From an archaeon (GTDB taxonomy: Archaea; Asgardarchaeota; Thorarchaeia; Thorarchaeales; Thorarchaeaceae), in assembly GCA_024276825.1 (NCBI GenBank), contig JAJRWI010000049.1, forward strand, positions 1 to 36,828: a DNA stretch of 36,828 nucleotides, written 5' to 3'. The notes below the pieces were generated by a model, which did no database searches, was not told the DNA's origin, and saw nothing but the letters and a program-made list of their open reading frames with translations. The position numbers and the translations under genes were made by a program. Positions 297 to 4,298 of the stretch are shown one piece after another; position 1 is the stretch's first letter, and each line of letters starts with the position of its first letter.

Positions 297-1049
297 TCAC
301 ACTGAACCGATCTCGCCTGGAAATACTCTAATACCATCATCAGTAATTCGCATTGAATGAATTCTGGAACTGTGCTTGGACCCTCTGAGCTTTAGCACCT
401 CAATAGAGCGTGAGCGTGAGGTTGGCCCAATCTTCTCGTTGTATAGCACGATTACGCCTGATGCGAGGAATGCCTCAATGTCAAACACTCCAAGCCCGTT
501 CTGATGTTCGGGTATCTCGCTTGTCAACAGGAGAGTCCTCCCACCCTGTGTTAGATGTGCTGTTAATTTAAAGAACTCTTCTCTTAGAATGTCTCGGCTT
601 CTGAATTTGTATGCAAGGATTGATAATGTGTCTATGACTATGCGCTGGGCATTGATGCGATCTGCATGACTTGCTATTATCGCTTTTAGGCCAGACAGAT
701 CAAAGCTGGGGTACTCTCCAATCGAAACTGGTGTGACCTCTTTAGATGGCGAGAGGTCAATTATTGCAAGAAGGCCCTCTTTCTCAAGTGCTTCAAGATC
801 CATTCCGAAACACATCATGTTTCGTTTTATCAAATGCGGCGGTTCTTCCAGTGTGACCAGTATGCCAGGTTCATTGTATTTGACTGCCCCATTATAGAGG
901 AACTGTATTGCCAAAATGCTCTTTCCAGTACCAGCTTTTCCCGCAATCAGAATTGTATCGCCCTTGGGAAAACCCCCCTCAATCAACTCGTCTAGGCCTG
1001 GAATGCCTGTCTTCACCCGTGGTATTGTATACTCGCTCATATCATTCAC
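297..1049 (-). CDS. kaiC: Single-domain KaiC-family ATPase (CI-like)
   Basis: KTGIPGLDELIEGG N-terminus, Walker A GKAGTGKS, catalytic VTLEEP, Walker B IVIDT, and RSIEVLKLRGSKHS...ITDDGIRVFP C-terminal motif. Confidence 0.92.
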   Translation of the reverse strand: MNDMSEYTIPRVKTGIPGLDELIEGGFPKGDTILIAGKAGTGKSILAIQFLYNGAVKYNEPGILVTLEEPPHLIKRNMMCFGMDLEALEKEGLLAIIDLSPSKEVTPVSIGEYPSFDLSGLKAIIASHADRINAQRIVIDTLSILAYKFRSRDILREEFFKLTAHLTQGGRTLLLTSEIPEHQNGLGVFDIEAFLASGVIVLYNEKIGPTSRSRSIEVLKLRGSKHSSRIHSMRITDDGIRVFPGEIGSV

Positions 1050-1050
1050 C

Positions 1051-1332
1051 TCATTTTTTCGACAACCTTGCCCCCATTATCATCCTGATGAGAATTTCTG
1101 GTTCAGGAATGCCGGTAACACTCATGCCATTGATCATTATAGTTGGTAGTGCGAATATTCCAAATTCTTCAGCTGCTGAAGGATCTTCGGACACATTGAT
1201 GATTATAAGGTTAAAGATACCATCCTCAAAGTCATTGAGCGTTTCTTTGAGAATCTCTTCAGCCCGGGGACAGAAGGCGCACGTATCAGACTTGAAGAAG
1301 TATATCTTGATTCTAGAGTCTTCCTCAGTCAT
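1051..1332 (-). CDS. Thioredoxin-fold protein with CxxC, KaiB-like
   Basis: CAFC motif and cis-Pro motif ALPT; the segment RAEEILKETLNDFEDGIFNLIIINVSEDPSAAEEFGIFALPT follows the KaiB pattern. The stop is 1 nt from the kaiC start. Confidence 0.8.
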   Translation of the reverse strand: MTEEDSRIKIYFFKSDTCAFCPRAEEILKETLNDFEDGIFNLIIINVSEDPSAAEEFGIFALPTIMINGMSVTGIPEPEILIRMIMGARLSKK

Positions 1333-1444
1333 GACTTCTGTGCTCCCTGCTGTATTGGCTAGAAGCTGAACTCCAGCTTTAATGACACAGAATCATAATG
1401 AGATAACTCACTTGAATGTTTTGCCAGATTGTAAGATTCGGTAT

Positions 1445-1831
1445 CTACTTCTTGTATGATAGAATGCCACGTATCTTAGTAGCGGCCTTTCCAATTGCTC
1501 GTGAGTGATATCTCACGTGCTTGGGAATTATAGCAGCAATAAGGAAGCCTTCATTGCCAATTGTGGCGATGTTTCTGAAAACAACTTTTCCCAGAGAACA
1601 TCTTACGGTGATGTCACGAAGATCACCGAGTTTGAACTCATCACGCATTCTTTTAACTGTGGACGCCACATACCCAGTCATTGCTGCAACAATATCGCGG
1701 TTGGTGGTTGGAGATGTCGCTGATGCGATAAGAAGGCCATTATCTGTAGAGATGACAGATGCAATAAATCCACCTTCTTTGTTCATATGTTCTAAAATAT
1801 CTGCCAATGCAGCATAATCAGGTCTAGCCAT
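1445..1831 (-). CDS. Roadblock/LC7 (MglB/LAMTOR-like) domain protein
   Basis: About 128 aa from ATG 1831 (MARPDY). GGFIASVISTDNGLLIASA...IVAAMT pattern with alpha-beta-beta-alpha-beta-beta-beta-alpha layout. Confidence 0.85.
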   Translation of the reverse strand: MARPDYAALADILEHMNKEGGFIASVISTDNGLLIASATSPTTNRDIVAAMTGYVASTVKRMRDEFKLGDLRDITVRCSLGKVVFRNIATIGNEGFLIAAIIPKHVRYHSRAIGKAATKIRGILSYKK

Positions 1832-1978
1832 ATGCCATACGCTCCAACCAAATGACAAGAGCAATCCATAACGAAGTTCCTTATTAAGTAATGGCGTAGA
1901 AATACATAAGGAAATTGCCGATTAACTTAATACAGCAATGTCTTTTTAGGTGAGAAAGTAATCAAACAAGTAGAGGTT

Positions 1979-2515
1979 GTGACGAGATTGCCTGCAGACT
2001 ATCGGTTTAAAATCGTCATGCTTGGCGATGGTGCAGTAGGAAAGACTGCTCTTACATTAAGATTTACAGAAGACCACTTTGATGTTGACTACAAGAGAAC
2101 AATAGGATCTGACTTTGCCGTTAAGAGAGTAGCAGTTCCCGGCCTAGATGCAAACGTCACCCTTCAGATTTGGGATCTTGCAGGCCAACCAAGATTTGAG
2201 AGTGTCCGCCAGTCATTCTACAGGGGTGCACGAGGTGGACTGTTAGTATATGATGTCACGAGGAGAAGAACATTCATCAATCTGGACAGGTGGATTGATG
2301 AGGCATATCAGTCGATGGGTGCGAAAATCCCATTTGTGATTGTTGCAAACAAGGTCGATCTCACCGATAGTAGAATTGTGATGACTGATGAGGGGCGCGA
2401 GTTTGCAGAGAAGCATGGGTATCTGTATGTGGAGTCTTCAGCGCTTACTGGAGAGAACGTTGAAGAGGCCTATGTCGCTCTATGTAAGGCCATGATTGAA
2501 TCTTCGAAGATGTAA
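1979..2515 (+). CDS. Rab-like small GTPase
   Basis: G1 GDGAVGKT, G2/RabF1 TIGSDF, G3 IWDLAGQ, FESVRQSFYRGA, G4 NKVD, G5 ESSAL. No C-terminal Cys prenylation tail. Confidence 0.95.
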   Translation: MTRLPADYRFKIVMLGDGAVGKTALTLRFTEDHFDVDYKRTIGSDFAVKRVAVPGLDANVTLQIWDLAGQPRFESVRQSFYRGARGGLLVYDVTRRRTFINLDRWIDEAYQSMGAKIPFVIVANKVDLTDSRIVMTDEGREFAEKHGYLYVESSALTGENVEEAYVALCKAMIESSKM

Positions 2516-2519
2516 TGTT

Positions 2520-3659
2520 TCAAAGGCGTCGAGTTTTGCCCTTTAGAAGACCAAGGGCCTTCTTGCACTGCCATTGAATATAGAACAGGCGCTTGTCGCG
2601 AAGTGTTTCATCATCATATTGGGACTGAATCTCTTCAAATCTGTGGACAAACTCATCCCTTCTTGTTAATTCGGGGTCTGAATTGATGTCATCAAGCAGT
2701 TCTTGGAAGGGGCGCAGCATCTCATTCATATCTTTGACTTCCCACTTGATGATTGCGCCTGAACCATCAGAACTAAGGAATGCGCTTCCTGTGGGGTACC
2801 ATTCGATTCCATCAATCTCACCGTCTGTCCTGCTCTCACCCTGAATCGAGTAGGTGTCAGTTGTCCAAACAAACAACTCTTTATCGCTTGAGCCAGAAGC
2901 GATGTGTTTTCCATCACTACTAAAGGACAGGGCCCGCACTTCTGCCTGATGGCCAAACAACGTTTCAACTGGCTTTAGCTCGCTGGAGGAGGCATCCCAT
3001 AGAATAATCGTCATGTCAGACGACCCAGAAGCAAGAAGACTGCCGTCCCTGTTGAATCGGATCACATGAATTGCTGTTCTGTGGTCATTATGGACCGCAA
3101 TGGTCTTTCCTGATGACAAATCCCACTCCCGGATTGTTGAGTCTACTGATGCCGAAATGATTCGGTTCCCAGAGGGGTCCCATTCGCAGGCCTTGACGTA
3201 TAGAGTGTGGCCCTTAAGTGTCATGTGCTCCTGATAATTGTCCATGCCCCAGATCTTTAGAGTTGTGTCGCCACTAGCACTGACAAGTCTATCACCGTCA
3301 GGAGAGAAAGAGAGCGACAGGACGGGGTAGGAATGGCCGTCCAGTGTGGCCAAGCATGATCCAGTTCGTATGTCCCAGATTTTTACTGACCGTCCCACAT
3401 TGCCTGTTGCAACAACATCACCCTTCGGACTAAAAGCGATTGCTGTTGTCAGGTAATCATCTCTGATACATTGCATCTCTTCACAGTTGCGTGCGTCATA
3501 TAAACGGACGGTCTTGTCTTGAAGTGCTGCGGCAATCATTCGACCAACACCATTCATCGTGAAACGGCGTGTGATTTCCGATCCATGCTTGGCCTTATGT
3601 TTCATTATTGATGGTTTTAGGAAAAGAGACAATTCCCTTTGGGACATAATCAAGACCAC
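2520..3659 (-). CDS. WD40-repeat beta-propeller protein with a C-terminal helical extension
   Basis: Repeated GH...S.D.T.KIWD units (e.g. LDGHSYPVLSLSFSPDGDRLVSASGDTTLKIW), about 7 blades, plus a roughly 70-aa helical tail. The start codon is uncertain. Confidence 0.92.
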   Translation of the reverse strand: MVLIMSQRELSLFLKPSIMKHKAKHGSEITRRFTMNGVGRMIAAALQDKTVRLYDARNCEEMQCIRDDYLTTAIAFSPKGDVVATGNVGRSVKIWDIRTGSCLATLDGHSYPVLSLSFSPDGDRLVSASGDTTLKIWGMDNYQEHMTLKGHTLYVKACEWDPSGNRIISASVDSTIREWDLSSGKTIAVHNDHRTAIHVIRFNRDGSLLASGSSDMTIILWDASSSELKPVETLFGHQAEVRALSFSSDGKHIASGSSDKELFVWTTDTYSIQGESRTDGEIDGIEWYPTGSAFLSSDGSGAIIKWEVKDMNEMLRPFQELLDDINSDPELTRRDEFVHRFEEIQSQYDDETLRDKRLFYIQWQCKKALGLLKGKTRRL

Positions 3660-3728
3660 TCTATCATTGGTGATATGGCCGCCTCAACCTGATGCTAAAA
3701 GTCTTGTGAATACAGAACTTAATCGGAT

Positions 3729-4298
3729 TCAGCCAGACCAAGACTTTGCCTCAAGAATCTTGATTGCTAATTCTAGGAACGCAGCCTCGACATTTTCGCC
3801 AGTCTTTGCTGAGGTTTCAAGAAATGATGTGATAACACCATGGCTTGCAATCTCCTGTGCAAGTTTTTGACCCTCCTCTGTTGAAACCATTGACTCCTGC
3901 ATGGCGGGGTTGTCCTTGAATTGCTCCCGGAGATCAACCTTGTTAGCTATCAAGACTACGGGAATTTTTCGTCCAGCATTGGACCAACACTCCTCACACC
4001 AGTTCATGATATTCTCAAAGGATGAGCGTTCCACTACTGAATAGACTGCAAGTGCACCTTGAGCCCCCTTATAGAAGGTAGAGCGGACGCTCTTGAAGTG
4101 TTCCTGGCCTGCCAGATCCCAGATCTGAATGCTAATGTCATGGCCACCAGAGAGTGACATCTTCTTGACTGCAAAATCAGCACCAATAGTCAGGTTATAC
4201 TGCGCTCTGAAGTTTTCACCCATGTACGTTCTTCTCAGAGAGGTCTTTCCGACGCTACCATCGCCCATTAAGACAATTTTGAATAGTGCTGAAACCAT
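3729..4298 (-). CDS. Rab-like small GTPase with an insertion after G4
   Basis: GDGSVGKT, TIGADF, IWDLAGQ, FKSVRSTFYKGA, NKVD, ETSAKTG. Confidence 0.95.
   Translation of the reverse strand: MVSALFKIVLMGDGSVGKTSLRRTYMGENFRAQYNLTIGADFAVKKMSLSGGHDISIQIWDLAGQEHFKSVRSTFYKGAQGALAVYSVVERSSFENIMNWCEECWSNAGRKIPVVLIANKVDLREQFKDNPAMQESMVSTEEGQKLAQEIASHGVITSFLETSAKTGENVEAAFLELAIKILEAKSWSG

Follow-up and report, generated by a model that had tools for sequence, protein, structure and literature searches.

The window analysed here is the 36,828-nucleotide contig JAJRWI010000049.1 (assembly GCA_024276825.1), that is, contig C41, read from its first base, of a Thorarchaeaceae genome that we call G000. It begins with a same-strand run of genes encoding a Roadblock/LC7 protein, a CxxC thioredoxin and two KaiC-type ATPases (kaiC1 and kaiC2), and a gene for a Rab-like GTPase, ras1, diverges from the Roadblock end of this run. 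Comparison with related genomes shows that the four-gene Roadblock-thioredoxin-kaiC1-kaiC2 run is an invariant core specific to the order that holds the Thorarchaeota, that ras1 often accompanies this core but can be separated from it, and that a WD40 gene and a second Rab-like GTPase gene, ras2, are neighbours at the level of the family and not part of an order-wide core. The best explanation of the arrangement, to which we give about an even chance of being right, is a signalling cluster in which ras1 is functionally coupled to the KaiC operon via the Roadblock protein. The link of the operon to this one Rab is plausible but circumstantial.

Organisation of the KaiC operon and ras1

Gene identities were assigned by a Pfam scan with curated cut-offs, to which the loci of relatives, ortholog alignments and PDB sequence matches were added. 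A sequence-only reading of the window had described the run as roadblock-KaiB-like-kaiC-kaiC', accompanied by a pair of Rab-like genes and a WD40 gene, and the Pfam scan recovered all of these as described, with corrections to identity, to a start site and to the contig end. The first gene of the run, on the reverse strand, encodes the Roadblock protein of 128 amino acids (aa) at positions 1445–1831 (Robl_LC7 31.4 bits, cut-off 23). The open reading frame (ORF) call covers 1445–1864, and alignment of the orthologs places the start, MARPDY, at 1831; the divergent spacer therefore occupies 1832–1978 and measures 147 bp, close to the approximately 150 bp estimated earlier. This spacer is AT-rich on inspection and is presumed to hold the promoters of both the Roadblock gene and ras1, the latter reading forward from 1979 to 2515 (178 aa, Pfam Ras 176.9 bits). 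Downstream of the Roadblock gene, at a distance of 112 bp and on the same strand, follows the thioredoxin gene (1051–1332, 93 aa, Thioredoxin_3 28.7 bits, cut-off 24.8), which itself lies 1–10 bp upstream of kaiC1 (297–1049, reverse strand), a gene for a single-domain KaiC ATPase of 250 aa (Pfam KaiC 235.8 bits, cut-off 26.6) whose true start is likely the ATG at 1040.

The last of the four genes, kaiC2 (the kaiC' of the sequence-only reading), runs off the end of the contig, and the window holds only its N-terminal 97 codons at 3–293 on the reverse strand (Pfam KaiC 50.7 bits). The remainder was located at 8754–9173, reverse strand, of contig C69 of the same genome, after a gap of about six codons. 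Since relatives carry both pieces as one gene of 217–229 aa, kaiC2 is taken to be split across C41 and C69; the start of C41 and the end of C69 show no sequence overlap and are the two sides of one assembly gap inside the gene.

Conservation of the locus across Thorarchaeota

To describe the conservation of the locus we used 66 distinct species-level loci of the window's family, and each count given below includes only those loci whose flank extends far enough for the gene concerned to be seen. The Roadblock, thioredoxin and kaiC1 genes stand together in 66 of 66 loci, kaiC2 is followed by a gene for a TPR-like protein in 62 of 62, and no breakpoint was found inside the Roadblock-thioredoxin-kaiC1-kaiC2 run in any genome. 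Divergence of ras1 from the Roadblock gene was seen in 59 of 61 loci, the WD40 gene adjoins ras1 in somewhat fewer (50/57), and ras2 is present in 39 of 46. The orthologs of kaiC1 are 76–82% identical in 77 of the 85 family genomes. For the single sister-family genome the figure is 65%, and identity is at most 49% anywhere else among 400 Asgard genomes.

In the sister family the proteins of the four-gene run are 36–65% identical to those of the window's family, and the genes follow one another on one strand with short gaps in the order ParA-type ATPase, ras1, Roadblock, thioredoxin, kaiC1 and kaiC2, with a convergent EF2 gene thereafter. Here ras1 lies 67 bp upstream of the Roadblock gene on the same strand. 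WD40, ras2, HEAT and TPR genes are all lacking at this locus, and no TPR protein was detected elsewhere in the sister-family genome, which is 96% complete. Moreover, one monophyletic clade, typified by locus L003, has lost both WD40 and ras2 and still carries ras1 beside the Roadblock gene. The sister-family arrangement and this clade-level loss are the main arguments for ras1 belonging with the operon. The conserved neighbourhood that the sequence-only reading had called for was accordingly found for the Roadblock-thioredoxin-KaiC-KaiC' run in both families and, in most loci, for ras1, so that the refuting condition set by that reading, a neighbourhood that is not conserved, did not apply; it does not extend to WD40 and ras2, which neither the sister family nor the one clade has. 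Chance adjacency within the genome of the window, named at that stage as a real alternative, is unlikely: this genome has one KaiC pair, and the arrangement recurs in 66 species.

Besides this single KaiC pair, the genome of the window (2.9 Mb) encodes some 30 Ras-like and some 12 Roadblock proteins. A Ras-like gene lies within 2 kb at three of about 10 Roadblock loci, compared with about 0.4 expected by chance; Roadblock-GTPase adjacency in this genome tends to be non-random. Another cluster of such genes occurs on contig C52 (10655–15739), where a Ras-like gene, a broken Ras-like gene with internal stops and four Roadblock genes lie within 5 kb, with no KaiC gene among them; this cluster looks like one of the MglA/MglB type.

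The Roadblock protein and the Rab-like GTPases

The Roadblock protein belongs to the Roadblock/LC7 domain family (PF03259), and some of its orthologs score lower (20.6 bits for that of locus L005) yet align over their full length. Beyond the Pfam domain, the C-terminus (window 1445–1520) forms a conserved basic tail, VRYHxRxxGKAxTxIR, in which V106, R107, Y108, R111, K115 and A116 are invariant in 22 sequences. It might function as a docking peptide or form an amphipathic helix.

The crystallised Thor-Rab (PDB 7EZB) and the ras1 product are orthologs (284 bits, E 2.5e-84), the same chain giving 138 bits with ras2; eukaryotic Rab2 and Rab11 are likewise among the best solved relatives of ras1. 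With Rabs as its closest solved relatives, ras1 falls outside the MglA family, and Tran et al. likewise found that Thor-Rab groups with Rab/Ras and is distant from MglA (PMC10933270). Thor-Rab has a Rab-like structure with low intrinsic GTPase activity and is devoid of prenylation cysteines (PMC10933270). The prenylatable C-terminal Cys of eukaryotic Rabs is also absent from both proteins of the window, ras1 ending in ...IESSKM and ras2 in ...AKSWSG. Both are GTPase-domain-only proteins, of 178 and 189 aa, respectively, and neither has the C-terminal Roadblock domain of a Rag GTPase; Gtr1_RagA gave no match for ras1 and, for ras2, a secondary match of 30.5 bits beneath that to Ras (165.8 bits).

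With regard to catalysis, ras1 has an Arg in switch I (R40) and a Gln in switch II (Q70). R40 stands at the position of MglA Arg53, at which Thor-Rab is the only Rab paralog in its genome to have an Arg (PMC10933270). It is nearly invariant in the family, sister-family ras1 having Ser-Thr instead, and its catalytic role is putative. The predicted complex of two Roadblock chains with ras1 scored 0.57 compared with 0.02 for the best control, a pass that was graded weak: of 80 solved complexes, 58 attain the mark used, as do 2 of 110 mismatched pairs, and scores of 0.60 or less were given by only 7 of those 80 solved complexes and by both of the mismatches that passed. At least 70% of the contacts agreed between runs, and the pLDDT (predicted local distance difference test) of the partner was at least 78.

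The KaiC-type ATPases and the thioredoxin

The kaiC1 product shows all features of the KaiC family (PF06745), namely the RecA-type core with a Walker A motif at G37–S44 (GKAGTGKS), the catalytic Glu pair E68/E69 (LEE), a Walker B motif (VIDTLS) and the Arg finger KLRGSKH. When aligned to KaiC 8zn5 it gave 175 bits to the CI half, over the full length and including the stretch equivalent to the B-loop, and 83 bits to the CII half; the latter alignment places Phe-Leu at the positions of Ser431/Thr432 of CII, with no Ser/Thr phosphosite. KaiC1 looks like a CI-like ATPase that is catalytically intact, as judged from these motifs. In kaiC2 the Walker A (GPIGSGKT) and Walker B motifs are kept and Thr-Asp replaces the catalytic Glu-Glu, so that the protein is predicted to bind nucleotide while lacking the catalytic pair. 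A full-length kaiC2 ortholog matched Pfam KaiC with 104 bits as well as DUF7504, and its best PDB match was PH0284. An identity as circadian KaiC was rejected, as kaiC1 (250 aa) and kaiC2 (about 217–229 aa) are separate genes and not a fused CI+CII protein of about 500 aa. A clock protein split into CI and CII was likewise rejected, both KaiC genes being CI-like or PH0284-like and neither having the CII phosphosites.

The gene between Roadblock and kaiC1 had been labelled KaiB-like, a label that did not survive: by its sequence features the product is a small redox-type CxxC thioredoxin and not a member of the KaiB family. Thioredoxin_3 passes its cut-off, whereas KaiB (PF07689) was ruled out with 24.8 bits under a cut-off of 27, and no KaiB chain occurs among the 66 PDB matches at E≤0.01. 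The best solved relative is the thioredoxin 1fo5 (MJ0307) of M. jannaschii, with E 5.6e-14. The window protein has the active site C18-A-F-C21-P and the cis-Pro P63, the CxxC and cis-Pro loop that characterise the small archaeal thioredoxin fold (PF13192; MJ0307/1fo5), and the segments FKSxxCAFCPRAEE and ALPT, the cis-Pro loop, are invariant in 23 orthologs.

KaiC1-like genes in other lineages

We also examined 39 loci around KaiC1-like genes (38–49% identity) of other Asgard families. In six Asgard families such genes form closely spaced runs with small-GTPase genes on one strand, or stand beside genes for Roadblock proteins. One of these runs reads thioredoxin-KaiC-RagA-like GTPase; another has Ras, Arf-like and Rag/Arf-like GTPases followed by KaiC; in a third, Ras and KaiC are followed by a fusion of a degenerate KaiC with a receiver domain; and a fourth has a GvpD-like KaiC, KaiC and then Ras. 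In a further layout KaiC stands beside Roadblock-domain proteins of 290–360 aa. The non-Asgard relatives of KaiC1, in ANME-2 (42% identity) and Methanomassiliicoccales (36% identity), have no Roadblock, thioredoxin or GTPase neighbour.

The literature searched yielded no paper describing the operon or joining KaiC with Asgard small GTPases or Roadblock proteins, and KaiC is mentioned neither in the Thor-Rab paper (PMC10933270) nor in the asCOG preprint (bioRxiv 10.1101/2020.10.19.343400).

Neighbouring genes

Beyond ras1, and convergent with it across a 4-bp gap, lies the gene for a WD40 propeller with a C-terminal helical tail (2520–3659, reverse strand, Pfam WD40 163.9 bits). The second Rab-like gene, ras2 (3729–4298, reverse strand, 189 aa, Pfam Ras 165.8 bits), is 77–84% identical in relatives, and its product has a 9-residue insert after G4. 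The earlier statement that ras2 is co-oriented with WD40 holds in the window, where the two are 69 bp apart. In 24 of 39 relatives, however, a HEAT gene on the opposite strand separates them, and ras2 and WD40 are therefore not generally one transcript.

The HEAT protein has 406–447 aa, with HEAT repeats in its N-terminal part and a conserved C-terminal part that belongs to no family. Examples are found at L005:2996–4216 (reverse strand) and, as orthologs, at L003:1279–2601 and L023:4127–5467, whereas the corresponding position in the window (3659–3729) is empty. No homolog was detected in the genome of the window by tblastn at E≤1e-5, and locus L024 has fragments only. In the clade without WD40 the HEAT gene lies directly downstream of ras1 and overlaps it. 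The HEAT protein could be a Thor-Rab effector.

The TPR-like solenoid protein of 762 aa is encoded after kaiC2, at 6359–8644 of contig C69. It matches no Pfam family and is all-helical. Its AlphaFold2 (AF2) model (pLDDT 83.7) matches generic TPR solenoids (Ctr9, Ski3, IFT-A and LGN) at template-modelling (TM) scores that are low, and TPR therefore denotes the fold class of this protein and not its function; Atlas features also point weakly to TPR. An EF2-like GTPase gene (C69:4261–6348, forward strand), either the housekeeping EF2 or a paralog, runs towards the operon end from the opposite direction. It is convergent with the operon end in the sister family too (L027:10826–12922), and no other flanking gene is kept at that distance.

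On the far side of ras2, a forward-strand ORF of 109 aa (4496–4825) without a Pfam family lies just upstream of a gene for a family-B DNA polymerase (PolB), which it overlaps by 1 base. Its 51–67% identity in 9 relatives makes a real gene probable. A PADLOC scan of all eight proteins returned nothing relevant to defence.

Discussion

In the mechanism that we propose, KaiC1 and KaiC2 would form one or more slow RecA-type ATPase rings serving as a switch. The thioredoxin, putatively coupled to KaiC1 in translation, would give this switch a redox-dependent input, and its docking site may be the one on CI that KaiB or SasA occupies with its thioredoxin-like fold. A Roadblock dimer would couple the ATPase module to the GTPase cycle of ras1 in the style of MglB acting on MglA, positioning ras1's own switch-I Arg. 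In the window's family the TPR-like protein would act as a scaffold, while WD40, ras2 and, in relatives, the HEAT protein would make up a neighbouring block that may hold ras1 effectors and lies outside the conserved core.

The same gene order may also be read as two unrelated units lying side by side by descent, namely a KaiC operon whose Roadblock protein regulates or adapts the KaiC ATPases themselves and a Rab/WD40/HEAT/Rab block, with ras1 at the boundary and no signalling from KaiC to the GTPase. Members of the Roadblock/LC7 superfamily have been linked to the regulation of NTPases in general, and the Roadblock gene does not leave the KaiC run in any of the 66 loci, even where ras1 has been lost or moved. 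Thus, the species of locus L013 has lost ras1 (its best paralog is 57% identical) and kept the operon, with WD40 and Roadblock now as neighbours. In genome G401 the region is split, ras1-WD40-HEAT-ras2-PolB being found on another contig and Roadblock staying with the KaiC run. A phage-integrase-family gene stands there exactly where Roadblock should follow ras1 (L048:6321–7451, on contig C24 of G401), which suggests that this separation was a rearrangement mediated by a mobile element. That Roadblock goes with KaiC and not with ras1 in both separations argues for a first allegiance to the KaiC module. Several further points weigh against a coupling of ras1 to the operon. Background synteny in the family is high and takes in housekeeping genes too, PolB, the small conserved ORF and EF2 also keeping their places, and conservation within the family is therefore weak evidence of function. 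A single-gene inversion preserves adjacency without selection, so the sister-family layout is not strong evidence either, and the ras1 of that family is the one that lacks the switch-I Arg. In the other Asgard families, GTPase or Roadblock genes occur within 2.5 kb of the KaiC1-like gene in 11 of 39 loci compared with 9 of 39 at 5–9.5 kb, a difference that is not significant (one-sided p = 0.11, the loci not being independent). The Roadblock gene, some 112 bp from the thioredoxin gene, may have its own promoter. Because complexes of the MglA-MglB type are among those solved, the pass in complex prediction may show likeness and not binding. It should be underlined that all support for the coupling consists of genomic context and one weak prediction, with binding and co-transcription putative. 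What speaks against two independent units is that the sister family has lost the whole Rab/WD40/HEAT block except ras1, which now stands on the operon strand directly ahead of Roadblock, and that the clade without WD40 and ras2 kept ras1 where it was. Moreover, Roadblock domains are established regulators of small GTPases (MglB, Ragulator), and the Roadblock-ras1 complex did pass, if weakly. We consider the reading as two unrelated units rather unlikely.

The sequence-only reading had gone further than a coupling to ras1 and proposed a hub in which both Rabs switch on a WD40 propeller scaffold under KaiBC control, reminiscent of eukaryotic nutrient-sensing or trafficking modules. In most loci whose flanks are long enough, ras2, WD40, ras1 and the operon are contiguous, and ras2 is strongly conserved; both points are in line with such a hub. 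However, neither WD40 nor ras2 occurs at the sister-family locus or in the L003-type clade, and both go with a separate block where the region is split in G401, so that a propeller scaffold for the hub is not supported. In addition, ras2 and WD40 are not generally co-transcribed, WD40 converges on ras1, both GTPases fall outside the Rag type, the supposed KaiB is a thioredoxin, and nothing examined points to nutrient sensing or trafficking. We regard a hub of this extent as very improbable.

Parts of the locus resemble systems that are already known. As in the cyanobacterial KaiB-KaiC/SasA system, where fold-switched KaiB and the N-domain of SasA are thioredoxin-like, the gene directly upstream of kaiC1 encodes a thioredoxin fold, and kaiC1 itself aligns to the CI half of KaiC. 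In contrast to that system, the ATPases are single-domain proteins on two genes, CII phosphosites and KaiA are lacking, and the partner is a true CxxC thioredoxin; nothing suggests a clock function for the Thorarchaeal operon. Makarova, Galperin and Koonin (2017, mBio 8:e01959-17; cited in PMC5847659) are said to have described signalling hubs of archaea in which KaiC-like ATPases have inactivated KaiC partners. The operon resembles these in that it combines an apparently active KaiC-like ATPase, a degenerate, DUF7504-like KaiC paralog and putative input and output proteins.

On the GTPase side, MglA/MglB of Myxococcus xanthus and Thermus thermophilus also place a gene for a small Ras-superfamily GTPase beside a single-domain Roadblock gene, and MglA Arg53, the counterpart of R40 in ras1, is an intrinsic finger positioned by the MglB dimer (PMC10933270). 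They differ in that ras1 is Rab-like and that the Roadblock gene of the window runs with the thioredoxin and two KaiC genes, not with the GTPase gene; GAP (GTPase-activating protein) activity here is putative. In Asgard archaea, a conserved operon of a LAMTOR1-like Roadblock protein, a Rab-like GTPase and a DENN protein has been proposed as a GTPase-regulator module (bioRxiv 10.1101/2020.10.19.343400). In both cases a Rab-like GTPase gene has a Roadblock-superfamily gene as its conserved neighbour, but the Thorarchaeal locus has no DENN gene and the DENN module has neither KaiC nor thioredoxin. In Ragulator-Rag, too, Roadblock-fold proteins are a platform for small GTPases; ras1 and ras2, however, are Rab-like without the C-terminal Roadblock domain of Rag, the locus has a single Roadblock gene, and there is no evidence of nutrient sensing. 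KaiC-like hubs and Roadblock-GTPase pairs are each known already, and what is new here is their combination.

Asgard genomes encode dozens of Rab-, Arf- and Rag-like GTPases together with Roadblock or longin proteins, and in MK-D1 the pairing of a GTPase with its GAP or guanine nucleotide exchange factor (GEF) from genome layout was found to be difficult by Tran et al. (PMC10933270). A fixed Roadblock neighbour provides a candidate regulator for a GTPase whose ortholog has already been purified, crystallised and assayed. Tentatively, Asgard KaiC-type ATPase rings might be upstream controllers of Rab/Rag-like GTPases via Roadblock or longin platforms, with the Thorarchaeal operon as a redox-gated example acting on Thor-Rab; we hold this wider generalisation to be doubtful. 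On this wider reading, a prokaryote-style ATPase hub would be wired to eukaryote-style GTPase switches. With the Thorarchaeal locus, a GTPase and its candidate regulator from a close relative of eukaryotes could be tested directly by biochemistry, and with them whether archaeal KaiC-type signalling feeds into small-GTPase switching.

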